64,000 nt of DNA from an uncultured Candidatus Saccharibacteria bacterium (GTDB taxonomy: Bacteria > Patescibacteriota > Minisyncoccia > Phycocordibacterales > Phycocordibacteraceae), in the NCBI GenBank assembly GCA_964402535.1, contig CAYOCH010000002.1, positions 6,661-70,660 of the forward strand, in the 5' to 3' direction. A program made the position numbers and the translations under genes. Under the pieces are notes generated by a model, which saw only the letters and a list, made by a program, of their open reading frames with translations, was not told the origin of the DNA and ran no database searches. Of this stretch, positions 1,468 to 57,900 are shown piece by piece; position 1 is the first letter of the stretch; the number at the start of each line of letters is the position of its first letter.

Positions 1468-2706
1468 ATGTCCAAAACGAGCGGCTATTCTTTGTGGTTG
1501 ACGCCCGATGTCGCATCACAGGAATATCGCAGCCTTTCCGCGAATATCGCAGAACTCGCGGGGGTCTACGGTACGCCGCTGTTCGAACCGCATGTCACCC
1601 TCATCGGCGGCATACAAGGCACGGAAGCAGAGGTGCGTGCGAGGACACAAGAATTAGCAGATCGGCTGTCGACGTTCACGGTTCAGCTCGGTGCTATCGG
1701 ATCACGCGGTAGCTATCATCAAAGCCTCTTCATCTGCGCGGATCCTTCAGGCGAGCTCTTGCGCGCGAACGCTGTCGCGCGCGGCATCTTCTCCATCGAT
1801 ACCGGAGATTATTTCCCGCACGTGAGCCTCGCGTACGGCGACTTCTCGCCGGAGCAGCTTCAATCACTCCGAACCCGCCTCGCTTCAGGGTCGCCGATCC
1901 CCGGTACCGTGTTCGCTGTCTCCGGCATCACGTTGTGGCGGTGCGACGGGGAGGTCCGTGAATGGAAGAAGGTCGCCGACGTACCTTTTGCCGGAGAGGC
2001 ATCTGCTGCGAAGAAGCTGTCGATAATCATACCGGCATACAACGAAGAAAAGACCATTTCTGAACTAATCCGTCGGGTGAAGGATGCGCCGCTGGCGCTC
2101 GAAAAGGAGATCGTCGTCGTTGACAACGGCTCTACGGACCGGACGCAGGGCATCCTCGCGGGAGAGAACAGCATCGTGCTCGTCACGCTTGACCCGAATC
2201 GGGGCAAGGGCGGTGCGATCAAGGCCGGGCTCGAGAAAGCCACCGGCGACCTCGTTATCTTCCAGGATGCGGATCTCGAATACGATCCGCGCGATTATCC
2301 TGCGATGATAGCGCCGCTTCTCGATGGCCGGACGGAAGCGGTCATGGGCGTTCGGCGAGAGACCGATCATGATGCGTATCGATGGCGGTCGCCGTACTAT
2401 TTCATAAGCTGGATCGGGAATCATCTCATCACGTGGACGACAAACGCCCTCTTCTCGAACGATGCTGGCGAGTATGAGGGCTGCTATAAGGCGTTTACGA
2501 AGCGGCTGCTCGATACGATAGAGGTGCGAACGAACGGATTCGCCTATGACAACGAGTTGGTGTGCAAGATTTTGAAGCGAGGGAACAAGACCGTTGACGT
2601 CCCGATCCGTTATCAACCTCGCAGTTATGAAGCGGGGAAGCACATCCGCTGGCGGGACGGCCTTCTGATACTATGGACGATCATCAGATGCCGCTTTACT
2701 GATTGA
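1468..2706 (+). CDS. fusion protein: N-terminal 2H phosphoesterase (LigT-like) + C-terminal family-2 glycosyltransferase
   Basis: Two H-x-T/S-x motifs (PHVTLIGG, PHVSLAYG) in the first ~180 aa. The second half has a GT2 signature (LSIIIPAYNEE…VVVDNGSTDRT…IFQDADLEYDP). Confidence 0.7.
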   Translation: MSKTSGYSLWLTPDVASQEYRSLSANIAELAGVYGTPLFEPHVTLIGGIQGTEAEVRARTQELADRLSTFTVQLGAIGSRGSYHQSLFICADPSGELLRANAVARGIFSIDTGDYFPHVSLAYGDFSPEQLQSLRTRLASGSPIPGTVFAVSGITLWRCDGEVREWKKVADVPFAGEASAAKKLSIIIPAYNEEKTISELIRRVKDAPLALEKEIVVVDNGSTDRTQGILAGENSIVLVTLDPNRGKGGAIKAGLEKATGDLVIFQDADLEYDPRDYPAMIAPLLDGRTEAVMGVRRETDHDAYRWRSPYYFISWIGNHLITWTTNALFSNDAGEYEGCYKAFTKRLLDTIEVRTNGFAYDNELVCKILKRGNKTVDVPIRYQPRSYEAGKHIRWRDGLLILWTIIRCRFTD

Positions 2707-16523: not shown

Positions 16524-16556
16524 CCGAAAATGCCTTAGATAAGGCTTCTTTTTCGG
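16524..16556 (-). terminator. hairpin terminator downstream of the tRNA-Asn gene
   Basis: ccgaaaa-tgccttagataaggc-ttctttttcgg; A/T runs on both sides. Confidence 0.4.
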
Positions 16557-16569
16557 ACGGTATATTATC

Positions 16570-16874
16570 GAACAATCTGCTCCGGCGGTAGGACTCGAAC
16601 CTACAACCAACGCCTTACACGTGTCCTCTGATTACTCAAAGGGGTGGACTATATCATCACCGGATCTCGGTGCGAGGCGCTTCGTACCTTTCGGCACTAC
16701 TCCCGTGCGGGATAGTCTCTGAACCTTCACGGCGCCGTTCTTGCGAATGTGCCGCGCTTGGCTGCTGATTGCCCTCGTCTTGCTCGTTCGGGGTTCCAGC
16801 AATTCACCTCGTTATTCGACTCGAATTCCTTCGAGAAGCTGCGTTAAGCCACAGGGCGCTGCTCTACCATTGAG
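16570..16874 (-). tRNA. tRNA-Asn (GUU) interrupted by a group I intron in the anticodon loop
   Basis: 5' exon TCCGGTGTAGCTCAATGGTAGAGCAGCGCCCTGT (16841-16874). 3' exon TAAGGCGTTGGTTGTAGGTTCGAGTCCTACCGCCGGAG (16570-16607). Spliced product folds as a canonical cloverleaf with anticodon loop CUGUUAA and discriminator G73. Confidence 0.8.
16608..16840 (-). ncRNA. group I self-splicing intron (233 nt) inserted between anticodon positions 35 and 36
   Basis: Conserved P (AATTGCTGGAA), Q (AATCAGCAGC), R (GTTCAGAGACTATCC) and S (TGATATAGTCC) elements in canonical order. R/S can form P7. Intron begins after exon U and ends with G. CUGU/GCAG can form P1. Confidence 0.8.
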
Positions 16875-16959
16875 CTACACCGGAATATGTCGCTCTCCTT
16901 GCGGAGAGCTAGAAGCATATTAACCGAAAATTGGGGCGCTGCAATGGTACAGTTAGGCC

Positions 16960-30791: not shown

Positions 30792-32258
30792 ATGGCTTTA
30801 CTCGAGACGGTACACGCTGACCGGCTTGCTAAGATCGAACGACTGCGGGAGGCGGGCATGGAGGCGTATCCGGCTCGGACGCGCCGCACGCACGCCGTCG
30901 ACGACTTTCTCGAGAATCACGGCATCCTCGAGAAGAACAGCGAGGAAGTCGCGCTCGCCGGCCGCGTGCTGTCGCTGCGCGAGCACGGCGGGTCGATATT
31001 CGCAGATATTTTCGATGGGACGAAAGGGCAGTGCTACCTGCAGCGCGATAAGCTCGGCGACGACCTGTTCGACCTCTTCGTCGCGACGGTCGATACCGGC
31101 GACGTGATCGAGGTGTCAGGCCTCGCGTTCACGACGAAGCGCGGAATGCCGACGTTGGCCATCACCGGTTGGCGCATGCTCGCGAAGTCGCTCCGGCCGC
31201 TGCCGGACGAATGGTTCGGCATCAAGGACGAGGACGAGCGCTATCGCAAGCGTTACCTCGACATCTTGCTCACCAAGGATCTCGCTGACCGGATCAAGCG
31301 CCGTTCGCGGTTCTGGAACACGATTCGTTCGTACCTGCTCGAGCGTGACTTCATCGAAGTAGAGACGCCGGTCTTAGAGACGACGACTGGCGGGGCAGAG
31401 GCACGGCCGTTTGAGACGCACCACAACGCACTCGACTTGAATGTCTACCTCCGCATCTCGGCAGGCGAGCTATGGCAGAAGCGTTTGATAGTCGCGGGAC
31501 TGCCCAAGGTCTTCGAGATCGGGCGCATCTTCCGCAACGAGGGCATGTCGGCGGAGCATGCGCAGGACTACACGCAGGTCGAGTTCTATGAAGCATTTAA
31601 GGACTACGAGGCCGGGATGGAGATGGTTGCAGACCTGTATCGTAGGATTGCCGACGAGGTATATGGTACGCGCGTCTTCACGATCAAAGGACTTGAGATC
31701 GATCTGAATAAAGAGTGGGAGACCTACGACTTCTGCAAGCTGATGCAGGGCGCGTATGGATTCGATCCGCGCGAAGTCAGTGATCTGTCGGATGCAGACG
31801 CACGTGCGCTCTTGAAGAAACATGACCCGGCGTACGATGGGAATGAGGAGGGTATCGGCCGCGTCGTCGACCTGTTGTGGAAGAAGATCCGCAAGGGGCT
31901 CGCCGGACCCGGCTTCTTGATCAATGTGCCGGTATATCTTGAGCCGCTCGCGAAGAAGAGCGACAAGGATCCGCGCGTCGTAGAGCGATTCCAGGTGATG
32001 ATCGCCGGATCAGAGATCGGCAAGGGCTTCAGCGAGCTCAACGATCCCGTCGACCAGGCGGAGCGTTTCAAGCGTCAGCAGGAGCTGCGCGACGCGGGAG
32101 ACGAGGAGGCACAGATGCCTGACGCAGAGTTCGTCGAAGCACTCGAATACGGCATGCCGCCGGCCTTCGGCTTCGGCGTCTCGGAGCGGCTCTTCAGCTT
32201 TCTCGAGGGCGTCTCTGTGCGCGAGGGGCAGATCTTCCCCTTGATGCGTCCGAAATAG
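30792..32258 (+). CDS. lysS: lysyl-tRNA synthetase (class II)
   Basis: …FEIGRIFRNEGMSAEHAQDYTQVEFYEAF…GFGVSERL…. Confidence 0.9.
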   Translation: MALLETVHADRLAKIERLREAGMEAYPARTRRTHAVDDFLENHGILEKNSEEVALAGRVLSLREHGGSIFADIFDGTKGQCYLQRDKLGDDLFDLFVATVDTGDVIEVSGLAFTTKRGMPTLAITGWRMLAKSLRPLPDEWFGIKDEDERYRKRYLDILLTKDLADRIKRRSRFWNTIRSYLLERDFIEVETPVLETTTGGAEARPFETHHNALDLNVYLRISAGELWQKRLIVAGLPKVFEIGRIFRNEGMSAEHAQDYTQVEFYEAFKDYEAGMEMVADLYRRIADEVYGTRVFTIKGLEIDLNKEWETYDFCKLMQGAYGFDPREVSDLSDADARALLKKHDPAYDGNEEGIGRVVDLLWKKIRKGLAGPGFLINVPVYLEPLAKKSDKDPRVVERFQVMIAGSEIGKGFSELNDPVDQAERFKRQQELRDAGDEEAQMPDAEFVEALEYGMPPAFGFGVSERLFSFLEGVSVREGQIFPLMRPK

Positions 32259-37250: not shown

Positions 37251-37322
37251 TGGCCCTATCGTCTAACGGCTAGGACAGATCCCTCTCACGGATCAAATCA
37301 GGGTTCGATTCCCTGTAGGGTC
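37251..37322 (+). tRNA. tRNA-Glu (CUC)
   Basis: GGCCCTA acceptor, D-arm GTCT/GGAC, anticodon loop CTCTCAC, T-arm CAGGG-TTCGATT-CCCTG, 3' TAGGGTC-A; CCA not encoded. Confidence 0.8.
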
Positions 37323-37328
37323 ACAAAT

Positions 37329-43262: not shown

Positions 43263-46200
43263 ATGAAATCGAAGCGCGAAACGAAGGGCCTCATCTCCAC
43301 CCGCTACGCCGGAAAAATTTCGGGCTATACGTCTGCCTACTTGCGCCGCCTCGCACGCTCCGGTGAGATCGAGGGTGTGCAGGTCGGCCGCGTGTGGATG
43401 ATCCGCCAGGCCTCTCTGATTCGCTTTCTCGACGAGCAGGCCAAGCGCAAGGAGGAGCTCTCCAAGGAGCGCGCCCGCGTCCACGCCGAGGAGTACCTCT
43501 CACACCAGGCGCCGGTGAAGCGCGTAGTCGCCAAGATCGCGAAGCCGATCCCGGTCAAGAACGTCGACGTCGAGGGGCTCGTCTCGAGCTCGCGCTCGCT
43601 CGTGGTCACGGTCGTCGTGGCGCTCGTCGCTGGCACGATCGCAGCACAAGGTCTCACGCCGACGCTCACAAGGATCGCTGCGCAGCCGGCGGCGGCACTC
43701 AACGCCGGCGAGCAGATCGCCGTTGCGACCTACGAGACGATCCACGGCCTCTTCACCTCGACGACGAGTGCGCTTGCCGACCTCTTCGCTCCGGCGCCGA
43801 CGATCGTGGTACCGGCTCCGCAGATCCGCGTGAACAAGCCGCCGCTCGCAGTCGCGTCATCATCACCGACGCAGACCAAACCGAAGCAGGTCGCTATCGC
43901 TCCGATTCTCCCGGCTCCGTACAAGGAGCCGGCACCCGTTTCGTACCCGACCTACGTCACGACCATCAACGGCGTCTCGCAGAGCTATGTCGATGCCGCG
44001 GTCTCCGCGATGCGGAGCGGAATCCTCGCCACCGTCTCGGGGATGCTCGCGCCGGTCGCGCAGCAGACCGTCGTCAATCAGACGACCATCCAGCAGGTCA
44101 ACATGATCCAGCGGCTCGGCGGCCTGATCGTCGACAACGGCCAGTTCAACGGCGGCACGTTCGACAAGGGGACGATGACGAACGGCATCGCCGTGAATGC
44201 CGAGAATGCGACGTTCACGAATCTCTCGGCGGGCAACGTGAACCTGGGCGCATCGAACCTCGCGACGACGACCGTCTCGGGCGATCTCACGCTCTCGGGC
44301 GTCTTGTCGGCGAACACGAAGGCTGTCGCGCCCTACTTCGTCGCCACCGCCTCGAACGCCACCAGCACCTTTGCCGGCGGCCTTGCGGTCGGCACGCAGC
44401 GTCTCGTGGTCGACTCGACCACCGGCCGCGTCGGCATCGGCACGACCTCGCCAGCACAGACACTCGAGGTCTCGAGCGCCGGCGACTGGAGCGGCATCAA
44501 CATCACGACGACCGCCGCGGGCAACCACCAGGCGATCTCCTTCAATCACCCGGAGGGCTATCCCTTCCAGATCTTCACGAGCTACACCGGCGGGCGACCT
44601 GACACGCAGTTCTACGTCGGGAGCAGCGGGACGGTCTTCATGTCGAGCAACAAGTTGGCAGTGAACGGCGGGGCGATCCCGTCGGCATCTGAGGCAGCAC
44701 TCTCGGTCGTGCCGGTAGGCACTGAGCCTGGCTTGAACGTCAAGAATAACGTTAACGGCTCATCGTCGCTCTTGGTGACGAATCTCGGCAAGGTGGGTCT
44801 CGCTTCTACGACTCCCTGGGCGCAGCTCTCGGTGAACCCGAACGGCATCACGGGCCCCGCATTCGCGATCGGCAGCTCGACCGCCACCAACTTCGTCGTG
44901 ACGAACGGCGGGCAGGTGGGTATCGGGACGACAAGTCCGGCATACACGTTTGATGTTACCGGTAGTGCGCGGATGGATAACCTCGCAGTGTCACAGAGCG
45001 GCGGCTTCCGCGCTGTCACGGGCAGCTGGGCCGGATCGCCGAGCGGCGACAACCTGAGCTGGCTCGCATTCGGTTGGGCTGACAATACGAAATACCATCG
45101 TATCCGCACGTGCGGGTTCTCGAACGATAACTTGTGCTTCGATTTGATCAATCCGTCGACGCACTACCTCTCGATCACCGGGCAGCTGAACTCGGTCTAC
45201 GGTGCGACGATCGGCTATGCCGCGGGTACTGCCGGACCGACAAACGGCCTTGCCGTGAGCGGCTCGACAGGCATCGGCACCACCTCTCCGTGGGCGCAGC
45301 TCTCGGTTAACCCGAACGGGATCACTGGCCCCGCATTCGCAATCGGCTCCTCGACCGCCACGAACTTCGTCGTGACGAATGGGGGGAATGTCGGGATCGG
45401 GACTACTTCGCCGCAAAGCACGTTTGTCGTCAATGGCACGTCCCAGTTTACGAATAATGCTGTGTTCAATGCGCAGATCAGCGTCAGTCAGATTACCTCG
45501 CCGAATAACTTGTTGATTGCTGCAGGCGGACCACTGGTGCAGATTGCGGGTCACCTAGTGCCGCAAGTTACCGGTACATATGATTTGGGTTCTGCGAGTG
45601 CCGGATGGAGAAACGTGTATGTAACCGGGAACGTCGGCATCGGCACCACCTCGCCAAGCGCGACACTCGCAGTGCAGGGCAACGGCCTTTTCTCGGGCAA
45701 TCTCACCGCCTCGGGCAATACCTATATAGGTGCGACATCGGCGAACACCCTCACGGTGAACGCGCTCGTTAACTCTGACATCACGCCGAGCACGAACGCG
45801 GTCAACTCGCTCGGCTCGCCGAGCTTCTATTGGAAGAATGTCTACGCCGCGAACGTGATCGCCAACAACATCAGCGCCGCCTCGACCACGATCGCGGGCA
45901 CGGCCTCGGCCACCTTCACGATCAACTCGGGCAACGCGACGGCCGACACGCTCGACTCCTCACTCGTCTTCTTCCGCGGGACCGTCGTCCCGAACGCCGT
46001 TCTCGGTTGGGACTCGACCAACAAGCGCTTCACGATGAATCAGCCGCTCTTTATCCAGAACGCGTCGAATAACGGCGGCGGCGTGATCTCGCTCGCGGTA
46101 CAAGGGCTCGCTGGCCAGACCGCCGACGTCCTCCGCATCGCCTCCTCGACCGGCACGAGCTACTTGAACGTGACTGCGGGCGGGAATGTGGGGATCGGGA

Positions 46201-49200
46201 CGGCGAATCCGGGAAGCCTCTTCACCGTCTCTGGAGGGTCATCTGGTGAGCAGCAGGTGGCTTTGTTCACGAGTACCGGTTCAGCTAATACGAAGATCGC
46301 GATCGAAAATGCTGCGGTCGGCGGTCACAGGTGGGAATTGAGGTCAACATCGACCGGCACCTTCGATATCGTCGACAGAACCGCGCCTGCTCAGCGCTTC
46401 GTCATAGACACCGCCGGTAACGTCGGCATCGGCACGACCTCGCCGTGGGCGCAGCTCTCGGTGAACCCGAACGGGGTTACGGGCCCCGCGTTCGCAATCG
46501 GCAGCTCGACCGCCACGAACTTCGTCGTGACGAACGGCGGGCAGGTGGGTATCGGGACGACGAATCCGCAGCAGGCGCTGCATATCAGTACGACGAATAC
46601 GTATCAGGGCATCTTCTTGAACGGCAACGCAGCGCCCTCGATCGGGTTCGCCGGCTGGAGCGGGCTGACGCCCGCGTGGAAGGTGGGCATCAGCGGGTCG
46701 GCAGGGAGCAACTTGGCTATCAGCACCGGAGCGGCGAACGCCGACCTCTTCAACTTCACGACCGCGGGCAATCTCGGCATCGGGACGACCTCGCCGTGGG
46801 CGCAGCTCTCGGTGAACCCGAACGGGGTTACGGGCCCCGCCTTCGCGATCGGCTCCTCGACCGCGACGAACTTCGTCGTGACGAACGGCGGGCAGGTGGG
46901 GATCGGCACAAGCAATCCGACGCTCGGGACGGGCTCGACGACCCTCGAAGTCTACGGCAACGGCGGCGGCTTCACCCAGTACGGCTCGCTGTCTCTCGCC
47001 AACACTACGAACTCCGGCAGCTCCTATTCAGGCTCGGTCGACTACTACGGCGCTACCACGTTGTACGGCCAGATTCGCACGCACGTGATCACCGGCGGCC
47101 CGAGCGGTATGTCCCAGATCGAATTGTCGGCGCTGAATGGCGGCGCGCTGAATCAGGTGTTCACGGTCGGTGGCACCGGCAGCGTGACGGTCGGCACCGC
47201 AAACGGTGTGTCGAGCGGGTATCTTGGCGTCTACAACTCGGCCGGATACGGGCAGACGAATACCGGCATCATCTTGGGCAACATGCAGACGGGCGCCGGC
47301 TCGAATATCGGGGTCAACTTCGTCGACTACGCGCAGAACAACATCGCGCAGATCCTCGGCGTGTATCCGGGCGGCACCAAGGCCGGCAGCCTCGCGTTCT
47401 CGACCGGGAACGGCACGAGCCTGAACGAAGCGATGCGCATCACGAGCGCCGGCAATATCGGCATCGGTACCTCGACTCCCGCAGAGAAACTGGACGTCGC
47501 CGGGCGGCTCTCGATCGAGGATATCTCGGGCAATCCGCCGTCGGCGGCTCGGTCGTCATTTGTCTTCGAGAGCAATACGGACCCTCTCAATACGTCCGTC
47601 TCGGCGCTCTACGTGTATCCGAGGACCGACACCTCTAAGCGCTTCTATTTCGGCACGACGACGCACCAGTTCTATGCCGTCGACTTCTCGAACGTCTTGA
47701 GCATCACGGGTGTGACCAGTATCCAAGGCGCTCCCAACACGCAGGCGATCGATTTTTCATCGGCTGCGTATGACACGACCTACGGCACGGCGACGTTCGA
47801 CTTCAAGCCCACGGTCGATAACACCCGGCCGGTCGTGCTGCGCAACTCGCGCGTCACCGACAGCGCGACCTCGGTCGGCTTCGTGCTGAAGACGGTCAAT
47901 ACGCTCTCGAACGCATCGGCGAAGCTCCTGACGCTCGACAACAACACGACGAACCTTCTGACCGTCATGGCGAACGGCAATGTCGGCATCGGGACCACTT
48001 CTCCATTCGCTGACCTTTCGATTGGCGGGGCGAGCAACGGGACTAACCCGCTCTTCGCGGTCTCGACCTCGACTGCGAGCGCGACCTCGACCGCCTTCAT
48101 CATCGACAAGAACGGGAATGTCGGCATCGGGACGGCGAACCCGGGCCAGGCGCTCACGGTGAATGGCGAGATCAGCCTCTTGGGCGCATCTGGCTCGTCG
48201 CGCGGGCTCTTGGGCGCGCCGACATGGGACAACTCATACGTCTCGCTCCAGAACGGGTCGTTGAGTGAGAGCGCCGCGAACTCGGCGATCAACCAAAACA
48301 GCCTCGGTGACACGATCGTGAACGCCGCGACCGGCAGGGCGCTCCACCTGCGCGTCGGCAACACCGAGCAGATGAGCTTTAACGGCACCATCGCCGCATT
48401 CCAGAACGTGAACGTCGGCATCGGGACCACGAGCCCGGCAGACAATCTCGACGTATACGCGCCGAACAACGCGGGATTGGCGAAGATTGGACTGATAAGG
48501 GGCGATGGAGCGGGGTATCTGACGCAATGGACCTATGGCCCGGCGGGGAACGGATTCCTCGAGATCGGCGAGAACGAGGCGTTCAACAGCTCCGGCTCGG
48601 CGCGGGTACAGTTCAATACCGGAGCGCCGTCGTGGTTCCAGCAGTTCAACACCAACGTCGACAGCTATCAGATCGCACGCATCCCGGCGGGCGGCAGCAC
48701 GGCAAACGTGATGCTCTATATACAGAGTAACGGCAACGTCGGCATCGGCACCACCTCTCCCTCGCAGGCGCTCTCTGTGCAGGGCAATGGCCTCTTCTCG
48801 GGCAACATCACGGCAGCGAACATCACGGCGACTGGGACGGTGACTGCCGCGAATTTCTCCGGCCCAGGTGTAGATCCGCAAGGATATGGCAACTACTTGT
48901 CGATAAATCCTGCGACTCAGGATCTCAAATTCTCACGCGGCGGCTACTGGCTCAATTTCAATTTGACCAACAACACGCCTGTCATCACATCACAGAACAA
49001 TCTATTAGCCCTGCCTGGTATCACAGCGACATCCTCTGTATTTACGGGATACTCCGCGCAGCAAGATGTGAGTCGCTCAACGATCCTCTCGCTCACGCGG
49101 CAGAATACCGGCGCCCGCTTTCAACAAGCAGCAAACTTCATAATGGGCGGCTACGATTCGGCACAAACTGCGCATACGCAATTGGATATCGCCCTCACGA

Positions 49201-52200
49201 ACACCGCGACAAACGGCGTCCCAGACGCGACCGTGATGAGCCTCTTGGGCAACGGCAACGTCGGCATCGGTTCGACCACGCCTGCCGCGACGCTCGCGGT
49301 GCAGGGCAACGGCCTCTTCTCGGGCAACATCACAGCCGCGAACATCACTGCGACTGGGACGCTCTCGACAACCGGCGCGATCTCGGCACCGTACTTCGTC
49401 GCGACGAACGCGCTCGCAACGAGCACGTTTGCAGGCGGCATCACGGGGCCGGGCAGCTTTGCGGTGCAGCAGACGACTGGCTATGTCGGCATCGGGACGA
49501 CGTCGCCGACGAGTGCACTCTATGTCGCGGGCAATGGCCTCACATCAAGCGTTATCACGGCTGACGGAGGCGCGAACTCTATATTCGGCCTCACCGTGCG
49601 GGGCTATCAGAACTGGGGCTCGGGTGTCGCCTACACCAACCAGACTGCAAACCGTACCTACGTCACGTATCAGGACACGACAGGTAATTTCAATATCTAC
49701 GACAGCACGGTGGGGAATCGGGTCACGGTGACTTCTACCGGCAGCGTCGGCATCGGCACCACGACTCCGTTCTATAAGCTTGAGGTGAACGGCACGGTCG
49801 AGGTCGCGAACGGGAGCGGTCTTTATGCGCTCTCGTCGAGCGGCACGCACTACCGGCTCGTGGACCTCGACGCGAGCAACGTCGTGAACATGGGCCCCAA
49901 CGGCTCGATCCAGATCGCGAACGGCGCGCCCTCGAGCGCGATCTTCGTGCAGAACACTGGCTCGGTCGGGATAGGCACGAATAGCCCTCAAGTGGCGCTG
50001 CATGTAGGGCCGACGGCAGCCGGCGCGAATGAGGTCGCAAGATTCGAACATGCGAACGCTGCGGGTTCATCCGGCATCACGATCTATCAGAATGGGACAC
50101 TAAAGGGCTCTCTCGGTACTGGCGACTTCGTGGCGACTGGGGGAGCCAACACAGACTTCGGCATCCAGTCTGCTGGCAACATGCTGTTCGCTACTGGCGG
50201 TACTGTCCAAAAAATGGTGCTGACATCAGGCGGCAATGTCGGCATCGGGTCGACCTCGCCCACGAGCCTCTTGAGCGTCTATGGCGCGGCGGGGGCGGCC
50301 ACCGTCACGATCGGCTCGCCCTCGAACTCTGCGCTCTTGACGCTCGATCGCGGCTCGAACACGCAGAACGCGACCTTTAACCTCAACACCGCGGGCGTGA
50401 ATTACGGCTACTTCGGCCTCGACACGAGCGCCAACTCGGTGACGCTCGCCTCGTCGAACAACAACCAGCTCACGGTCTCAGCGCACAACGCAAACCTCCT
50501 CCTGCGCGGCGGCACGAGCAACGGCATCATCATGCAGACCAACGGCAGCGCCGAGGCGATGCGCGTCACAAGCGGCGGCAACGTCGGCATCGGGTCGTCG
50601 ACGCCAAGCGCTGTCCTCGCGGTGTCGAACACGGCCGCGACCGCCGCCAACACGCCGCTCTTCACGATCGCTTCGACGACGGGCGGCACCTCCACGTCAA
50701 GCTTGATGACCGTTCTCGCGAACGGCAACGTCGGGATAGGTACGAGCAATCCGACCTCGCCGCTGTATGTATCGGGTGCGCCTGCGTTGCAGGCGGTCAT
50801 CGGCACGACGGCGAACACGCAGAACTGGATCTCTATCATCAAGTCGAGCAGTCAGACTGCGAGCTTCGGCATCCGCGCCAATAACTACGGCTTCCTCCAG
50901 GCGAACACCGGGATGCAGATCGAGAACTCGTCGTCGCAACCCTATATCGTGTTTGACGGGGTGAACGAAGGGATCGGCACCACGTCGCCATCTGCGACGC
51001 TCGCAGTGCAGGGCAATGGCCTCTTCTCGGGCAACATCACGGCTGCGAACATCACCGCGACGGGGACGCTCTCGACCACAGGAGCGATCTCGGCGCCCTA
51101 CTTCGTCGCGACGTCGCCGACCGCGACCTCAACCTTCGCGGGCGGCGCGACGTTCGCGACGAGCGGCGGCAACGTCGGTATCGGGACAGCGAATCCAGGC
51201 TACGCACTCGACGTCGCCGGTCTTGCGGGCATCAATGGGCGAGTGAAGCTTGGCGCCGGCAACGATCAGGTGGACATTGCGAACGGTGGCCTCGTGCTAC
51301 ATGACAGCGGCACAACTGCATATGTCGAGGCGCAGAATTCTAACAAGCCGCTCGTTCTCGGTACCAGTAACGCGGATATTCAATTCACTACAGGATTCGG
51401 CGTCACAGAGCTGATGAGGATCAAAGCGAACGGGAATGTGGGGATCGGCACGTCGACGCCCGCGGCTACGCTCGCGGTCGCGATGGCGAGCACAACACCG
51501 GCCTTCTATATCGGCGCGGCAGGGAGCTCGTCGCCCGCCTTCTATGTCGGCAGCGCGAACGGGAGCGGGCTCGTGGGTATCGGCACCTCGGCACCCGACC
51601 ATCCGCTCCAGATCACCGGCAACCCGCTACTCACGAGCGCGGTCGTGCGTGTGGGCGCCGTCGCGCAGAACGTCTCTGCATTGCGCGTGAAGGGCTACTT
51701 CAACGGCTTGAACGGCAATGAGGATGCCGGCGGCGTGAACGTCTACAACTACAACTCGGCCACGGTGCAGGCGACGCTCGGCGGCGACAGCGGCCTCTTC
51801 GCCTCGCCGCGCGGCACCAACCTCGTCGCGGCGATCGTCCGCGGCCTCACCGGCCAGACAGCCAATCTGCAAGAGTGGCAGGATGTGAACGGCAATCCGC
51901 TCTCTGTGATTACGAGCAGCGGCAACCTCGGCGTGGGCACCTCCTCGCCCGCGCAGGCGCTCTCGGTCGCGGGGACGGGCTACTTTGCGACGAATGTCGG
52001 CATCGGCGTGGCGAACCCGGGCGTATATAGCCTTATGGTGCAGGCGCCGACGATCGGCGGCCAAGTCTTCGGCGTCACTACGAATTATGGCAACAGCGGC
52101 AAGTTCGAAGTCAGCTTCAACAGCGGCAACGACCCGTTCGCTCACTTGACTACTAAGCAGGGTGGACAGATCGCCTACTACGACATGTACGACTCGGTCG

Positions 52201-54920
52201 GCAAGGCGATGCAGCTTGGTCAGACATTCGGCAACGGGATCAACCTCTCGGCCTCGACGAGCATCCAGATCGGCATCGACTCGAACAATCTCGGCACCGG
52301 CATGTTCGAGATCGCAAGAGGGAACACCTGGAACGGTCGCGCGGGCGTCGACGGCACCTCGCTCTTCAAGATCCTCAACAACGGCAACGTCGGCATCAGC
52401 AACACGAATCCCTCAACCCTCCTCGACGTGAACGGCACGACCACGCTGCGCAACCAGGTGTCGGTGAATGGGGCGAGCTTCTACGACAACACCGGCAAGA
52501 TCGGGCTCGGGGTCAAGATGACGAGCGACCTCAAGACTGCGCTCTATGTCACTGACAACTTTGCGGCGATGAGCGCGATCAATGGCGCATACATCTCATC
52601 GGTCATATACGGCGCCAATACGCAGCAAGGGAAGAACGCGTACTATGGAGCCATCAATGACCCGACGCTCTCGGTGAATATCCAAAACGGTTCCGGGTTC
52701 GTGAGCTATCTCAATAACACCAACAACACCGGCACCAACATCAATCACGGCGGTCTCTTCTATCAGAATCAGACTATGAATGTGGCCAACACCGGAACCG
52801 ATTATGGCTACACCTCGTACAACTACATGCAGAGCAGCGGCAACCCGACCTCGCTTGCGAATTATGTCGGCTTCTACTCTCGCGGGCAATTCGCGGTCGC
52901 GCCGGCGACGACGACCAACCAGTACGACTTCTATGCCGACAACTTCGTGGGGACAGGTAACGGCGCGGTCGTGAACCGCTACGGCGTCTATATCGGCTTC
53001 AACAGCACCGGCATCACGAACCCCTACGGCATCTATCAAGCGAGCCCGACTGTCCAGAACTACTTCGGCGGCAACGTGGGGATCGGCACCACGACGCCCC
53101 TCGCGAAGCTCGCAGTTCTCGGCACGGCAGAGCAGCTCCGTCTCAACTACGACGCGACGAACTACGCGAGCTTCACGGTGAGCAGCGCCGGCACGCTCAC
53201 TATTGCCCCCACGTCGAACGTAATGAATATCTCGGCGACGACACTGAATACGAATACGATCAACGTCGCCACCGGCAACGTCATCAATTTCAACGGGGTA
53301 GGCTACCTCCGCAGCCTGGGCGGCGTGTTTAACATCAATGACACCAACACGAACAACATCCTTCTCGCCAATGGTGGCGGCAACGTCGGCATCGGCACGT
53401 CGACACCTCAAAACAAGCTGACGATCGTCGGCGGGATCGGCACGTTCGTTAACACCAACTCCTCCTACCGAACCGACTGGGATGCCGGCTATATGATCAA
53501 CGACAAGCTTGCGATATCGAAGTACGGCGCAATTGGCCAGCTCTCGATCGACGCACAGGGTCAGTTCGGTTCGGTAATGGTCGGAAATATCGGCAACTAT
53601 GTGAGCAATTTGCTTGTGAGCGGCAACGTGGGGATCGGGACCACGACGCCTGGGAAGAAGTTGGTTATAGATAGCGGCTCGAATGGCAATAGCTTTGCGG
53701 CAAGCTTCAGCAATGGTGGAGCGGGCAGACCATATTGGCTGTATAATTTCCAGCAGCAGAATGTGCAGTGGACTTCTGGATTCGACATTGGAGGGAATAC
53801 AAACGACTTCTCCATCAGCAATACGTACTCTGGAACCCGAGATGTTTTCCACATCGAAAACACGGCGCCTGCGAATAGTTTTAGAATCCAAGCAAATACT
53901 GGCAATATCGGTATCGGTACGACGAGCCCTTCGACCCTCTTACACCTCTACTCGGCGAGTGCGCCATCGATAACGATTGAGTCGTCTGCTGCTGGCGGCG
54001 GCGCGACCGATAGGCGTCTCACCATCAATCAGAACAATGGAGGTACGGCGACACTCACCGCGATGGAGGATGAGAACAGCTCAACTCAGGCGGCGTTCAT
54101 CATCAACGCGACTAACAATCCGAGCAACGCCGCGCTCGCGATTCGGCCCATATTCGATCTGCAGAACGGCGGCAACAGCAAGCTCTTCGTCACAGCCGCA
54201 GGCAATGTCGGCATCGGCAGTACGTCGCCGAATACGAAACTTGTTGTCTCTGACAACAGCGGCCAGACGCTCATCGGCAGCATGGCCGCTTCGTACGGAT
54301 CCATCGGTTTCCAGCCGACCCTCACCACGTCCAATTTCGCGCTCGCCGGCAACACATCTGAAACGATACTTAATACGCTCGCGGGCACGTCGCTCAAGTT
54401 CCGCGTAGCGAACGCAGACAAGATGGTTATGGACCAAAACGGCAATGTCGGCATCGGCACCACGACACCTAGCAATAAGCTGACCGTCGCAGGCGGAGCA
54501 GACTTCGGTACGGCATACAGCCCGACTGGACAGACGATACGTCTAGCGCCGAGCGGAACGTTTTCAGAAGCGGATGTCATTTCTCAAGCGGTAGGATTGT
54601 CGATCTTCGCTAATCCGCAGGCCACAGCGCAGCCGTCATGGATCGACCCGCTTATGAGTCTCCCGAACGGGGCAGGACTGATGTCGACGACGGGAGTCGA
54701 TCTGATTTTGTCCGCGTCATCTCATGCTGGCGGCGGCGTCACGATCGCCGGATATCATAACGGCGCTGCACATGACATCAAGTTCTTCAACGACGGCAAC
54801 GAACAGATGCGCCTCACGACCGCTGGTAATCTCGGCATCGGGACCTCGACGCCGGGCGCGACGATGAACGTCTACTCGGGCGCCGGGACGCCGTGGAATA
54901 CCTACCCATCAGGCACCTGA
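43263..54920 (+). CDS. giant membrane-anchored repeat protein (3885 aa): N-terminal excisionase-type HTH + TM anchor + tail-fibre-like 'GNVGIGTTSP' repeat region
   Basis: N-terminal …LISTRYAGKISGYTSAYLRRLARSGEIEGVQVGRVWMIRQASLIRFL (HTH_17-like). TM helix SLVVTVVVALVAGTIAAQGL. Then ~3700 aa of Gly/Thr/Ser/Asn-rich modules with recurrent GNVGIGTTSP(W/S)A…L(S/A)V and APYFVAT…ATSTFAGG motifs. Ends at TGA, in frame with the next ORF. Confidence 0.8.
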   Translation: MKSKRETKGLISTRYAGKISGYTSAYLRRLARSGEIEGVQVGRVWMIRQASLIRFLDEQAKRKEELSKERARVHAEEYLSHQAPVKRVVAKIAKPIPVKNVDVEGLVSSSRSLVVTVVVALVAGTIAAQGLTPTLTRIAAQPAAALNAGEQIAVATYETIHGLFTSTTSALADLFAPAPTIVVPAPQIRVNKPPLAVASSSPTQTKPKQVAIAPILPAPYKEPAPVSYPTYVTTINGVSQSYVDAAVSAMRSGILATVSGMLAPVAQQTVVNQTTIQQVNMIQRLGGLIVDNGQFNGGTFDKGTMTNGIAVNAENATFTNLSAGNVNLGASNLATTTVSGDLTLSGVLSANTKAVAPYFVATASNATSTFAGGLAVGTQRLVVDSTTGRVGIGTTSPAQTLEVSSAGDWSGINITTTAAGNHQAISFNHPEGYPFQIFTSYTGGRPDTQFYVGSSGTVFMSSNKLAVNGGAIPSASEAALSVVPVGTEPGLNVKNNVNGSSSLLVTNLGKVGLASTTPWAQLSVNPNGITGPAFAIGSSTATNFVVTNGGQVGIGTTSPAYTFDVTGSARMDNLAVSQSGGFRAVTGSWAGSPSGDNLSWLAFGWADNTKYHRIRTCGFSNDNLCFDLINPSTHYLSITGQLNSVYGATIGYAAGTAGPTNGLAVSGSTGIGTTSPWAQLSVNPNGITGPAFAIGSSTATNFVVTNGGNVGIGTTSPQSTFVVNGTSQFTNNAVFNAQISVSQITSPNNLLIAAGGPLVQIAGHLVPQVTGTYDLGSASAGWRNVYVTGNVGIGTTSPSATLAVQGNGLFSGNLTASGNTYIGATSANTLTVNALVNSDITPSTNAVNSLGSPSFYWKNVYAANVIANNISAASTTIAGTASATFTINSGNATADTLDSSLVFFRGTVVPNAVLGWDSTNKRFTMNQPLFIQNASNNGGGVISLAVQGLAGQTADVLRIASSTGTSYLNVTAGGNVGIGTANPGSLFTVSGGSSGEQQVALFTSTGSANTKIAIENAAVGGHRWELRSTSTGTFDIVDRTAPAQRFVIDTAGNVGIGTTSPWAQLSVNPNGVTGPAFAIGSSTATNFVVTNGGQVGIGTTNPQQALHISTTNTYQGIFLNGNAAPSIGFAGWSGLTPAWKVGISGSAGSNLAISTGAANADLFNFTTAGNLGIGTTSPWAQLSVNPNGVTGPAFAIGSSTATNFVVTNGGQVGIGTSNPTLGTGSTTLEVYGNGGGFTQYGSLSLANTTNSGSSYSGSVDYYGATTLYGQIRTHVITGGPSGMSQIELSALNGGALNQVFTVGGTGSVTVGTANGVSSGYLGVYNSAGYGQTNTGIILGNMQTGAGSNIGVNFVDYAQNNIAQILGVYPGGTKAGSLAFSTGNGTSLNEAMRITSAGNIGIGTSTPAEKLDVAGRLSIEDISGNPPSAARSSFVFESNTDPLNTSVSALYVYPRTDTSKRFYFGTTTHQFYAVDFSNVLSITGVTSIQGAPNTQAIDFSSAAYDTTYGTATFDFKPTVDNTRPVVLRNSRVTDSATSVGFVLKTVNTLSNASAKLLTLDNNTTNLLTVMANGNVGIGTTSPFADLSIGGASNGTNPLFAVSTSTASATSTAFIIDKNGNVGIGTANPGQALTVNGEISLLGASGSSRGLLGAPTWDNSYVSLQNGSLSESAANSAINQNSLGDTIVNAATGRALHLRVGNTEQMSFNGTIAAFQNVNVGIGTTSPADNLDVYAPNNAGLAKIGLIRGDGAGYLTQWTYGPAGNGFLEIGENEAFNSSGSARVQFNTGAPSWFQQFNTNVDSYQIARIPAGGSTANVMLYIQSNGNVGIGTTSPSQALSVQGNGLFSGNITAANITATGTVTAANFSGPGVDPQGYGNYLSINPATQDLKFSRGGYWLNFNLTNNTPVITSQNNLLALPGITATSSVFTGYSAQQDVSRSTILSLTRQNTGARFQQAANFIMGGYDSAQTAHTQLDIALTNTATNGVPDATVMSLLGNGNVGIGSTTPAATLAVQGNGLFSGNITAANITATGTLSTTGAISAPYFVATNALATSTFAGGITGPGSFAVQQTTGYVGIGTTSPTSALYVAGNGLTSSVITADGGANSIFGLTVRGYQNWGSGVAYTNQTANRTYVTYQDTTGNFNIYDSTVGNRVTVTSTGSVGIGTTTPFYKLEVNGTVEVANGSGLYALSSSGTHYRLVDLDASNVVNMGPNGSIQIANGAPSSAIFVQNTGSVGIGTNSPQVALHVGPTAAGANEVARFEHANAAGSSGITIYQNGTLKGSLGTGDFVATGGANTDFGIQSAGNMLFATGGTVQKMVLTSGGNVGIGSTSPTSLLSVYGAAGAATVTIGSPSNSALLTLDRGSNTQNATFNLNTAGVNYGYFGLDTSANSVTLASSNNNQLTVSAHNANLLLRGGTSNGIIMQTNGSAEAMRVTSGGNVGIGSSTPSAVLAVSNTAATAANTPLFTIASTTGGTSTSSLMTVLANGNVGIGTSNPTSPLYVSGAPALQAVIGTTANTQNWISIIKSSSQTASFGIRANNYGFLQANTGMQIENSSSQPYIVFDGVNEGIGTTSPSATLAVQGNGLFSGNITAANITATGTLSTTGAISAPYFVATSPTATSTFAGGATFATSGGNVGIGTANPGYALDVAGLAGINGRVKLGAGNDQVDIANGGLVLHDSGTTAYVEAQNSNKPLVLGTSNADIQFTTGFGVTELMRIKANGNVGIGTSTPAATLAVAMASTTPAFYIGAAGSSSPAFYVGSANGSGLVGIGTSAPDHPLQITGNPLLTSAVVRVGAVAQNVSALRVKGYFNGLNGNEDAGGVNVYNYNSATVQATLGGDSGLFASPRGTNLVAAIVRGLTGQTANLQEWQDVNGNPLSVITSSGNLGVGTSSPAQALSVAGTGYFATNVGIGVANPGVYSLMVQAPTIGGQVFGVTTNYGNSGKFEVSFNSGNDPFAHLTTKQGGQIAYYDMYDSVGKAMQLGQTFGNGINLSASTSIQIGIDSNNLGTGMFEIARGNTWNGRAGVDGTSLFKILNNGNVGISNTNPSTLLDVNGTTTLRNQVSVNGASFYDNTGKIGLGVKMTSDLKTALYVTDNFAAMSAINGAYISSVIYGANTQQGKNAYYGAINDPTLSVNIQNGSGFVSYLNNTNNTGTNINHGGLFYQNQTMNVANTGTDYGYTSYNYMQSSGNPTSLANYVGFYSRGQFAVAPATTTNQYDFYADNFVGTGNGAVVNRYGVYIGFNSTGITNPYGIYQASPTVQNYFGGNVGIGTTTPLAKLAVLGTAEQLRLNYDATNYASFTVSSAGTLTIAPTSNVMNISATTLNTNTINVATGNVINFNGVGYLRSLGGVFNINDTNTNNILLANGGGNVGIGTSTPQNKLTIVGGIGTFVNTNSSYRTDWDAGYMINDKLAISKYGAIGQLSIDAQGQFGSVMVGNIGNYVSNLLVSGNVGIGTTTPGKKLVIDSGSNGNSFAASFSNGGAGRPYWLYNFQQQNVQWTSGFDIGGNTNDFSISNTYSGTRDVFHIENTAPANSFRIQANTGNIGIGTTSPSTLLHLYSASAPSITIESSAAGGGATDRRLTINQNNGGTATLTAMEDENSSTQAAFIINATNNPSNAALAIRPIFDLQNGGNSKLFVTAAGNVGIGSTSPNTKLVVSDNSGQTLIGSMAASYGSIGFQPTLTTSNFALAGNTSETILNTLAGTSLKFRVANADKMVMDQNGNVGIGTTTPSNKLTVAGGADFGTAYSPTGQTIRLAPSGTFSEADVISQAVGLSIFANPQATAQPSWIDPLMSLPNGAGLMSTTGVDLILSASSHAGGGVTIAGYHNGAAHDIKFFNDGNEQMRLTTAGNLGIGTSTPGATMNVYSGAGTPWNTYPSGT
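44817..46920 (+). repeat. intragenic near-identical ~125-nt DNA repeats (family A: WAQLSVNPNG(I/V)TGPAFAIGSSTATNFVVTNGG(Q/N)VGIGT)
   Basis: Copies at ~44817, 45291, 46446 and 46797 (>90% nt identity between the last two), plus a fifth in the second ORF at ~56484. Confidence 0.7.
45652..51150 (+). repeat. intragenic ~75-150-nt repeats (family B: ATLAVQGNGLFSGNITAANITATGTLSTTGAISAPYFVAT…ATSTFAGG)
   Basis: Copies at ~45652, 48760, 49283 and 50993; the 49283 and 50993 copies are >90% identical over ~150 nt. Confidence 0.7.
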
Positions 54921-54968: not shown

Positions 54969-57900
54969 GTGGTGGTCAACAAGTATCTCTCGGCCAACTC
55001 GACCACCTTCGAGGTTGGGACGATCAACGACAGCAACGGCGTCTACGCCTCATCGCTCAAGATCACGGGCGACAACGCGGTCCGCGTGCCGCTCACGCTC
55101 CAGCTCGGCAACTCGGGCGGCAACGTGACCAGTCTGCAGCTCGGCGCCAACACCTCGGTCGCGAGCGGCGCCGTGATCGCGAATATCTATAACGCCAGCA
55201 ATAATCCGGGCATCACGGTCGGTACGAGCCGCACCGACGGCACCGCCTTCACGGTCGCAAACGGGATCACTTATGACGCGAACAAGGTGCCGAACTCGGG
55301 CGGCACCGCGCTCCTCACCGTGCTCGGCGGCGGCAATGTTGGCGTGGGCACCACCTCGCCGTATGCGCTCCTCGCCCTCTCGAACTCAGTGTCGACGCCC
55401 GCTAACACGCCGTTCTTCACGATCTCGAGCACAACCGGCGGCACCTCTACCTCGACCCTCATGACCGTGCTCGCGAACGGGTACGTGGGCATCGGGACGG
55501 CGAGTCCGGGACGATTCCTGGATGTGGTGGCGAGTACCACTGCCGGGACAGAAATCGCGCGATTCACCAACACGCCTGTAAGCAATCGGTATATCTCTGT
55601 CCGCACGGTGGGCGCGTCTGATTTCGGCGGTGCGTACATCGGCGGGCCGATGTTGGACAGCAGTGATCCCCAGGTCATTTTCGGCAAGAATCTGTTACTG
55701 CCAAGTAACGGTGCGAATATAGCATTGGCTCAATCCAGCTTGACGAGTTCGTCTGCCGGGGGAACGGTGCTGACGAGCGGCGGATCGACGGCCCAAGCCG
55801 GGACAACTATCCAGCTGGGGAATAGCTCGACTTTCCAAGGGAATCTGTACGTTAAAGATGGGTCGGGGAACACGGTGATGACAGTCCAACCGACAGGTAA
55901 TGTCGGTATTGGTGCCACCGCACCAACCTCGCCCTTGACGGTCGTGACGCCCTCACTGTGGGGCAATGGGGCAGCAGGCGAGAATCTAGGCGTGACGGTC
56001 AACCCGTCGGCCAACGGCACGCTCTATGGGCTTTTTAACCTGACAAGTGTCACGGCCACGACCACGACCGGCAACGCGGCCGTCGTCGGCTCTCAGAACA
56101 CGGTGACGGCCACCAATAACAACGGCGGCAACACCACGCTCACCGCCGTCTCTGGGACGACGAACAACACCGGCGGTGGGAGCGCAAGCCAGATGACCGG
56201 CTTCTTTACGAATCCGGCGGTCTATAACACCGGTTCGTCGGTGAGCTCGCTCTATAACTTCTACGCAAACGACGTCTATCTCGGCAACGGCACCTCGCAG
56301 CCCTTCGGCTCGGTCAACAAGCTCTACGGCTATTATGTCGGTGCGCTCCAGAGCGCCTCGACCAACTACGGCCTCTTCTTCGCCAACAACCCGAACGGCG
56401 GCTCGATCGCCTCGGCCGCCTCGACCAACATCTCGATCCTGCCCGGCTCGGGCGGGAGCGTGGGGATCGGCACCACATCGCCGTGGGCACAACTTTCGGT
56501 CAACCCGAACGGGATCGCGGGCCCCGCCTTCGCGATCGGCTCCTCGACCGCGACGAACTTCGTCGTGACGAACGGCGGGAATGTGGGGATCAACACGGTT
56601 AACGCGACGAACGCTCTCACGTTCGGCGCGACAGGCGGCTATGAGATCTCGACGGAGCCGAACAATGCAAACGACCTCAACATCACGACGAACGCGACGA
56701 ACGGCGGCGGGATCTCTCTCGGTGCAAGAAACTCGAACAAATCGATCTATGTGAGTATCGGGGGTGGAGTCGGTATCGGCACGACCTCGCCGCGCGCCGC
56801 TCTTGAGATCGGCGGCAGCGCGAACCCGTCCGTCTACCTCAACTCGCAATATTCAACGCCGAGCACGATGCAGTGGTATATCCCGAACATCGCGACGATG
56901 TCGCTCGTCGCAAATGCGGTCGGGAACGAAAACGCAAACGCGCAGTGGGTCATGGACATGGGCTCTAGTGACGGCCTTACAGATTCTTTTGGCGTACTCC
57001 GCGCTAGTACCGTGGGTTCCACCCGCGTGCCGTTCTTCGTGGTGAACAACAACGGCAACACCGGCATCGGCACCACGACGCCGGGCGGCGACCTCTCGAT
57101 CGCAGGCAGCGCCGGCGGCACCAACCCGCTCTTCCTCATCTCTTCGAGTACCTCGGGCTACGCGACCTCGACCGCGTTCATGGTCGACAGTTACGGCAGC
57201 CTTGGCATCGGTCGGGTGCCGAACGCGCAGCTCTCAGTGGCTGGCGACGCCTATATCGGTACTGGCGCAGGCTCCTTCACCTTCACCTCCAACTACAACT
57301 TCAACGCACAAGGCACCAACTTCGGCCCGAGCCTCAACATCTCTGATGGCGATGCGACAAACCGCTGGGCCTCACTGCGCCTATCGACGGCGGGCGGTCA
57401 ATGGGAGATGGCCGACATGGGCGGGAACCTCGGATTCCTCCGCGGCTCGAACAATCGCGTAGTGATCGGTCGCTCCGATAGCAGCAATGCGAACCTGAAC
57501 GTCTACAACGACGCCAACACCATCCTCTTCACGGTTCAGCCGACGGGCTACGTCGGTATCGGTCCGAGCAACCCAGTTAATCAGCTCGACATCGGCATCG
57601 GGCCGTTCGCAACCGCCAAGACGGCCAACTTCAGCACCCTCAACATCGCGAACACGGCGACCTCCTCGTCGTCGTTCACGAAGACCGGCATGCAGATCTC
57701 ATCGACCGGCGCGTGGACAGGCCCGAACTACGGCCTCTATGTCTCGGCGGTCTCGGGCGGCACCAACAACTACGACGCGATCTTCAACGGCGGCGGCAAC
57801 GTCGGTATCGGCACCACGACGCCTTCGGATCTCTTGTCACTCGCTTCAACTAATCCGAGAATCGACCTGTTTGACACGAATGTTTCGGGTCCGGCGCGTG

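Follow-up and report, generated by a model that had tools for sequence, protein, structure and literature searches.

The classical group I introns of bacterial tRNA genes belong to subgroup IC3 and interrupt cyanobacterial tRNA-Leu(UAA) at position 34/35 and tRNA-fMet at 33/34, as well as the tRNA-Ile of Azoarcus and the tRNA-Arg of Agrobacterium (36/37). In IC3 introns the 3′ strand of helix P3 (P3′) comes directly after P7; the hairpins P7.1 and P7.2 are the hallmark of subgroup IA.

Williams (bioRxiv 2020, 10.1101/2020.01.27.920355) raised the number of intron-split tRNA classes from 4 to 21, and 'Asn.4Ug' is among the classes of that preprint as cited by Nakagawa et al. (mSystems 2026, PMC13011429; bioRxiv 10.1101/2025.07.03.662931). 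The latter study described group I introns of subgroup IA at position 35/36 of tRNA-Asn(GUU) in Patescibacteria, with 15 cases in 95 complete genomes; these are the commonest tRNA introns of the phylum. While 81% of bacterial tRNA introns are of the IC type, none of those found in Patescibacteria are. The intron of GCA_016700035.1 self-splices in vitro; the ligated tRNA was sequenced and splicing was precise at 35/36, and a mutant in which omega-G was changed to C was blocked in ligation. Homing endonucleases are absent from most Patescibacteria tRNA introns, with HNH endonucleases present in some of those in tRNA-Asn. The tRNA-Asn introns are missed by tRNAscan-SE and miscalled as tRNA-Thr(UGU) with an intron at 33/34 by ARAGORN and tFind (PMC13011429).

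Here we analysed a 64-kb stretch of DNA (the window), following up a preliminary description that placed a group I intron in tRNA-Asn(GUU) between positions 35 and 36 and considered this arrangement unusual. While the intron and its position are borne out by the results below, the supposed rarity is not, since the class had already been described as the commonest tRNA intron of Patescibacteria (PMC13011429).

Results

A tRNA-Asn gene split within its anticodon

The window has a G+C content of about 60%. MAG proteins of Candidatus Paceibacterota, Parcubacteria and Kaiserbacteria share 80-84% identity with its LysRS (30792-32258; NCBIfam lysS), in keeping with the reduced-genome lineage suspected in the preliminary description. 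On the evidence of this protein and of the sole homolog among the genomes scanned, a Paceibacteria MAG (L003, see below), the host is assigned to the Paceibacteria (Patescibacteria/CPR).

The two halves of the tRNA gene lie on the minus strand (Table 1). Joined in silico, they form a 72-nt cloverleaf that ARAGORN calls as tRNA-Asn(gtt), with the anticodon loop CUGUUAA. All stems are paired in the window (acceptor 7/7, D 4/4, anticodon 5/5, T 5/5), and the same four stems covary across 35 homologs. Both junctions are strictly conserved: exon 1 ends in CUGU, exon 2 opens with UAA and the last nucleotide of the intron is G, each in 43/43 homologs. No ORF or homing endonuclease was found in the 233-nt intron of the window. 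The preliminary description had correctly recognized the canonical tRNA-Asn halves with their CUGUUAA loop and G73, as well as a 233-nt insert that follows an exon U (16851) and ends in G (16618). Its coordinates were uniformly shifted by 10 nt, such that the gene spans 16580-16884 and not 16570-16874, and the spliced junction joins 16851 to 16617 and not 16841 to 16607.

The surroundings of the gene were also inspected. The tRNA-Asn gene of the window lacks an encoded CCA, the bases after its discriminator G being CAG (16577-16580 (-)); GCCA is encoded in about half of the homologous genes of alignment A1 (see below). A promoter scan found no sigma-70-like promoter upstream of the tRNA-Asn gene. 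In the presumed 5′ leader, a hairpin of 7 perfectly matched bp is closed by a GCAA tetraloop (GCUCUCC-GCAA-GGAGAGC, 16892-16909 (-)); it has no T-run and stops 7 nt short of tRNA position 1. Just downstream of the tRNA gene lies a terminator-like hairpin (16532-16545), scored on the plus strand only. ARAGORN detected no other tRNA-Asn in the 64-kb window, as the preliminary description had also noted; run without intron mode, it missed the split tRNA-Asn, and the sole tRNA that it found in the 64 kb was tRNA-Glu(CTC) (37252-37324). Elsewhere in the window, two adjacent giant ORFs (43263-54920 (+), 3,885 aa; 54969-60281 (+), 1,770 aa) together occupy about 17 kb.

Table 1. Features of the split tRNA-Asn gene and its predicted intron in the window, followed by viral and metagenome contigs with several introns (positions of the latter refer to the respective contig).
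Feature	Position	Strand	Description
Split tRNA-Asn(GUU) gene	16580-16884	-	U1 to discriminator G73; in silico splicing and ARAGORN
Exon 1	16851-16884	-	34 nt, ending ...GCGCC-CUGU; U35 (16851) is the -1 nucleotide
P1	16839-16854	-	Exon C32-U33-G34-U35 plus intron G1 (16850-16854) with internal guide CGCAG (16839-16843)
Predicted group I intron	16618-16850	-	233 nt, subgroup IA architecture, from GGCUUAACGCAG to GACACGUG; omega-G is 16618
P2	16820-16835	-	Hairpin, 6 bp, GGAA (GNRA) tetraloop; changes on both sides at 6/6 pairs
P3, 5′ strand	16805-16811	-	CGAGGUG, partner 16673-16679
Core element P	16794-16804	-	AATTGCTGGAA
P4	16763-16801	-	16796-16801 with 16763-16768, around P5/P5a (16772-16792); contains the P and Q elements
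Core element Q	16761-16770	-	AATCAGCAGC
P6 and P6a	16723-16762	-	Hairpin; both-side changes at 8/8 P6a pairs; one A-C mismatch in P6a of the window
Core element R	16713-16724	-	GTTCAGAGACTA
P7, 5′ strand	16713-16719	-	Part of R, bulged A; guanosine-binding helix, pseudoknot with P3; 6/6 pairs with 16646-16651
P7.1	16701-16712	-	Hairpin UCCC-GCAC-GGGA, between P7 and P3′; 95% paired, one both-side-changed pair
P7.2	16684-16697	-	Hairpin GUGCC-GAAA-GGUAC; both-side changes at 5/5 pairs
P3, 3′ strand	16673-16679	-	CGCCUCG
P8	16658-16672	-	Hairpin CACCG-AGAUC-CGGUG; both-side changes at 4/5 pairs
P7, 3′ strand	16646-16651	-	Part of S
Core element S	16646-16655	-	GATATAGTCC
P9.0 and P9	16619-16645	-	P9.0 (AC 16644-16645 with GU 16619-16620) around the P9 hairpin (16625-16642, GUAA tetraloop)
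Exon 2	16580-16617	-	38 nt, beginning UAA-GGCGU, from UAAGGCGU to CCGGAG
Multi-intron contig L144	589-4006
Multi-intron contig L018	106-1272
Multi-intron contig L138	4945-5875
Multi-intron contig L127	4932-5448
Multi-intron contig L176	2874-4134

A predicted group I intron of subgroup IA

The insert matches the Rfam family RF00028 (Intron_gpI) with 64.0 bits (gathering score 50, E=6.5e-14), and the alignment covers 16625-16862(-) and model positions 1-253 of 253. This match is far above chance. The four core elements P, Q, R and S are all present on the minus strand in the order reported by the preliminary description, and R and S pair as P7 (6/6).

A full secondary structure model, comprising the tRNA stems, P1, P2, P3, P4, P5/P5a, P6/P6a, P7, P7.1, P7.2, P8, P9.0 and P9, was mapped to 35 distinct precursors aligned with MAFFT (alignment A1), and the pairs were counted. 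In the window 88 of the 89 modelled pairs are standard, the sole exception being the A-C mismatch in P6a. Across the 35 precursors 94.4% of cells fall in standard pairs, compared with 36-44% when the 3′ partners were slid by 1-3 columns. Both sides have changed at 56/89 pairs, and none of 500 shuffles equalled any of the observed measures. Almost all pairs of P2, P6a, P7.2 and P8 covary, and P3, P4, P5 and P7.1 each include covarying pairs. The core of the window intron agrees with the family consensus at every invariant column. The minimum free energy structure of the intron alone (ViennaRNA) recovered all of the nested helices (P2-P6, P7.1, P7.2, P8, P9); its thermodynamic z-score was unremarkable (-1.49). 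Two of the checks proposed in the preliminary description, an Intron_gpI scan and a fold from P1 to P9, thus support it.

All five pairs of P1 form in the window. Of these, the U.G wobble and three more do not vary, and the remaining one covaries (GC 23, AU 4, CG 2). The wobble at the 5′ splice site is found at U35 in 35/35 homologs, and U33 pairs with A in 35/35. P3 is fully paired in the window (7/7) and in 99.2% of cells across homologs, with both-side changes at 4 pairs. Across homologs the paired fraction is 100% in P4, where one pair covaries, and 90% in P5; P5a is weak (67%). The homolog set was picked by a pattern in which the bases of P7 were fixed, and the invariance of P7 therefore carries no covariation information. 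P9.0 is 100% paired, and its C-G pair is replaced by U-A in three introns that end in AUG (L003, L093 and L119). The joining segment J7/9 follows the same division: introns with GUCCAC end in GUG, and the three with GUCCAU end in AUG.

The P1 loop of the window (GCUUAA) is short, and the CUUA within it could pair with the UAAG of exon 2 as a 4-bp P10. As a conserved element P10 was rejected: the UAAG/CUUA match is seen in the window and in L003, is weak in L093 and is not seen in L074, L080 or L119, nor in most of the remaining homologs. Because it is missing from most homologs, P10 is at best lineage-specific.

The terminal loops and their possible partners were compared across the same homologs and show the signatures expected for tertiary contacts. 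GNRA tetraloops make up L2 in 35/35 homologs and L9 in almost every one. Every intron with an 11-nt-receptor-like P5 (CCUAA...UAUGG/UAAGG) has a GAAA L9, and the short P8 (CCGAGAWCCGG) occurs with a GGAA L2 in 7/7 introns, that of the window included. The L2 and L9 tetraloops thus correlate with candidate receptors, a pattern to which shared ancestry may add. The nucleotides flanking P5 switch jointly between G..U and A..C in 32/35 introns of alignment A1, an isosteric wobble exchange; the exceptions at this P5-closing position are L071 (A..U) together with L111 and the window (C..C; 16793/16771 in the window). Comparison of the window with L003 had also raised the idea that the intron segment AAGCGCC at P3′ is a copy of the 5′ strand of the anticodon stem and covaries with it. 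This was dismissed, as almost every homolog keeps GAAGCGCC, irrespective of its anticodon stem.

Between P7 and P3′ the window intron has ~31 nt with two covarying hairpins. Membership of IC3 was rejected on these grounds, and with P7.1 and P7.2 in this position the intron is not filed under that subgroup. Based on this architecture, and on homology to introns classed as IA by PMC13011429, the sequence of the insert assigns it to the group I introns of subgroup IA. That the intron is of the IA and not the IC3 type had been overlooked in the preliminary description.

Homologs in tRNA genes

A set of 185,579 species-representative genomes was scanned with a pattern composed of the junction, the guide sequence and P4. 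Five loci were returned, one of which is a true homolog: L003, from a Candidatus Paceibacteria MAG, carries its intron in the same tRNA and at the same site (Rfam 77.7 bits). The other four (L001, L002, L004, L005) were discarded as chance pattern matches without an Rfam hit. A second pattern, which describes the core independently of the host gene (UUCAGAGACUAUCC...GAUAUAGUCC), gave at least 120 matches in the metagenome collection and at least 120 in the viral collection. Among the 120 metagenome matches listed, 42 are tRNA-Asn genes split as CUGU/...G/UAA (slashes mark splice sites).

Two further loci among the metagenome matches listed, L027 and L034, are tRNA-Asp(GUC) genes split at 35/36 (CUGU/...G/CAC) by the same type of intron, as in the second class of PMC13011429. 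The tRNA-Asn introns of two other metagenome loci (L089 and L095) are 441 and 537 nt long, which leaves room for an ORF.

Related introns in phages

The window intron shares the exact core UUCAGAGACUAUCC...GAUAUAGUCC with introns of phages. In a sample of 20 viral loci the RF00028 matches scored 54-106 bits, and over viral and non-tRNA metagenome contigs the same core lies in bona fide group I introns with Rfam scores of 50-106 bits. Unlike the window intron, the phage introns reside in protein-coding hosts (capsid, class II ribonucleotide reductase, helicase), often several per locus, and some are accompanied by endonuclease-like ORFs. Among the viral loci examined none is in a tRNA except L180.

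L180 (IMGVR_UViG_3300045988_176357) is a 192-kb viral contig with an intron-bearing tRNA around 2617-2695(-), beside a tRNA-Met. The anticodon of this tRNA is CUA; it is an amber suppressor, labelled 'Pyl(cta)' by ARAGORN, and is split at 35/36 (CUCU/...G/AAA). Its intron is of the same IA type, with UAUCCC..GGGAGUAG..GAAGCGC in common. The guide reads GGAG instead of GCAG, matching its exon, and the U.G wobble with U35 is kept. The IA-type intron thus also resides in a recoding-type phage tRNA.

In several viral and metagenome contigs, 2-4 group I introns that share this R/S core are packed into a few kb (Table 1). In L144 four introns lie in 3.5 kb, with intervening exons as short as ~45-125 nt. 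Among the flanking ORFs are matches to phage capsid proteins (PF19821, PF25209), to class II ribonucleotide reductase (L007) and to a helicase (L140). Some flanking ORFs are GIY-YIG endonuclease-like by motif, one of which was submitted to Pfam and gave no match.

Splice-site position and identity of the tRNA

Whether the intron is placed at 35/36 or at 33/34, position -1 is a U and the intron ends in G; the two placements were therefore tested against each other. With both junctions moved 2 nt upstream (CU/GUGG...CACG/UGUAAGG), the gene would encode tRNA-Thr(UGU), and this is how ARAGORN in intron mode reads the precursor (tRNA-Thr(tgt) i(33,233)). However, the diagnostic U.G wobble is at U35 and not at U33, whose partner is invariably A. 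P9.0 pairs the two nucleotides preceding the downstream G and covaries from C-G to U-A, which identifies the downstream G as omega-G; under the 33/34 placement L003, L093, L119 and L084 have no G at the omega position. The same miscall as tRNA-Thr is documented in PMC13011429, where the ligated product of the homolog was sequenced as GUU. The body of the tRNA was also compared. The window has the GUU anticodon, G73 and U1-A72, as do 35/35 homologs. In the identity sets of E. coli and other bacteria, U1-A72 and G73 are features of tRNA-Asn, as determinants of Asn identity or of transamidation; the corresponding positions of tRNA-Thr are G1-C72 and A73. When the spliced tRNA was compared with annotated E. 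coli genomes by BLAST, the best match was a tRNA-Thr (79-81% local identity, positions 2-63). This likeness lies, however, in the generic D and T arms, and globally the spliced tRNA resembles E. coli tRNA-Thr (74% identity) no more than it does the published tRNA-Asn exons of Patescibacteria (67-78%); its global identity to E. coli tRNA-Asn is about 68%. The fetched loci contain 7 intron-less tRNAs, with no intron-less tRNA-Asn or tRNA-Thr gene among them. Since whole-body similarity does not discriminate between isoacceptors, the Asn call rests on the structure of the splice sites and on the published experiment. Taken together, these results make a tRNA-Thr(UGU) gene highly improbable, and we consider it very probable that the window carries a tRNA-Asn(GUU) of a Paceibacteria (Patescibacteria/CPR) bacterium, whose anticodon is broken between U35 and U36 by a group I intron (subgroup IA, 233 nt, no ORF).

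Two readings would qualify this assignment. The family retains CUGU at the 5′ splice site, and in 40/43 members the intron closes with GUG, which makes a functional ambiguity of 2 nt conceivable: a minor alternative splice at 33/34, with the G at -3 as omega-G, could yield a UGU tRNA alongside the main GUU product. In the assay of PMC13011429 the major band alone was sequenced. The pairing of U33 with A and the Asn-like acceptor stem argue against such a minor product, and P9.0 accounts for the conservation of the G at -3, leaving this the least probable of the alternatives weighed here. The other reading is that the locus is a decaying pseudogene, with a non-splicing intron in a dispensable tRNA copy and a functional tRNA-Asn elsewhere. 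The view extends over 64 kb of the genome, such that a second tRNA-Asn copy is possible, and the promoter scan found no sigma-70 consensus upstream. Against this stand the intact catalytic-core elements, with 88/89 modelled pairs preserved, the perfect cloverleaf and the agreement with the family consensus at every invariant core column. We therefore regard decay as very unlikely. The tRNA-Asn gene of the window is presumably transcribed and spliced in vivo, and it is probably the only tRNA-Asn of the cell.

Discussion

The features of the locus are consistent with a model in which the tRNA-Asn gene would be transcribed as a precursor of ~305 nt, within which the intron would adopt the P1-P9 core fold, including the IA-specific P7.1 and P7.2. 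The guide CGCAG would pair with the exon CUGU and intron G1, so that the 5′ splice site would carry the U35.G wobble, and an exogenous guanosine bound in P7 would attack after U35. P9.0 (AC/GU) would then dock omega-G in the same site, possibly aided by the weak P10 (UAAG/CUUA), and the free 3′-OH of U35 would attack after omega-G, ligating the exons and restoring the loop CUGUUAA. The guanosine-dependent chemistry of this model is taken by analogy from established knowledge of group I introns and from the assay published for a homolog.

The window intron is a further instance of a known and experimentally validated class and adds no new principle beyond PMC13011429. Its value lies mainly in annotation, because the gene is either missed by standard tRNA finders or miscalled as tRNA-Thr. 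Where this happens, the genome would seem to be without a tRNA-Asn and would score as less complete. The locus also provides one more case of self-splicing IA introns that persist in essential single-copy tRNA genes of the reduced Patescibacteria genomes.

The agreement with the published class is extensive. The window intron shares with it the phylum and class of the host (Paceibacteria), the tRNA, the 35/36 site, the junctions and the IA architecture; it likewise lacks a homing endonuclease, has a length within the published range and is subject to the same Thr(UGU) miscall by ARAGORN. Global identity to six published members (Table S3 of PMC13011429) is 59-67%, with identical junctions (CUGU/...G/UAA) and shared core blocks, and the intron of GCA_016700035.1, which was assayed in vitro, is 63% identical. 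The published Paceibacteria member GCA_016699245.1 has the core of the window intron, UAUCCC...GGGAGUAG...GAAGCGCC...GAUGAUAUAGUCCAC. The exact sequence of the window intron was not found in the accessible part of the supplementary tables of PMC13011429. Compared with the published class, the host is unusually GC-rich (about 60%), and the P1 loop is short, with a possible 4-bp P10 that is missing from most relatives.

Like the classical IC3 introns, the window intron appears to be a small ORF-less ribozyme that sits within the anticodon loop of a tRNA, with a short P1 formed on anticodon-loop nucleotides, and by analogy would splice in two guanosine-initiated steps. Unlike them, it is assigned to subgroup IA, is positioned at 35/36 and resides in another host tRNA.
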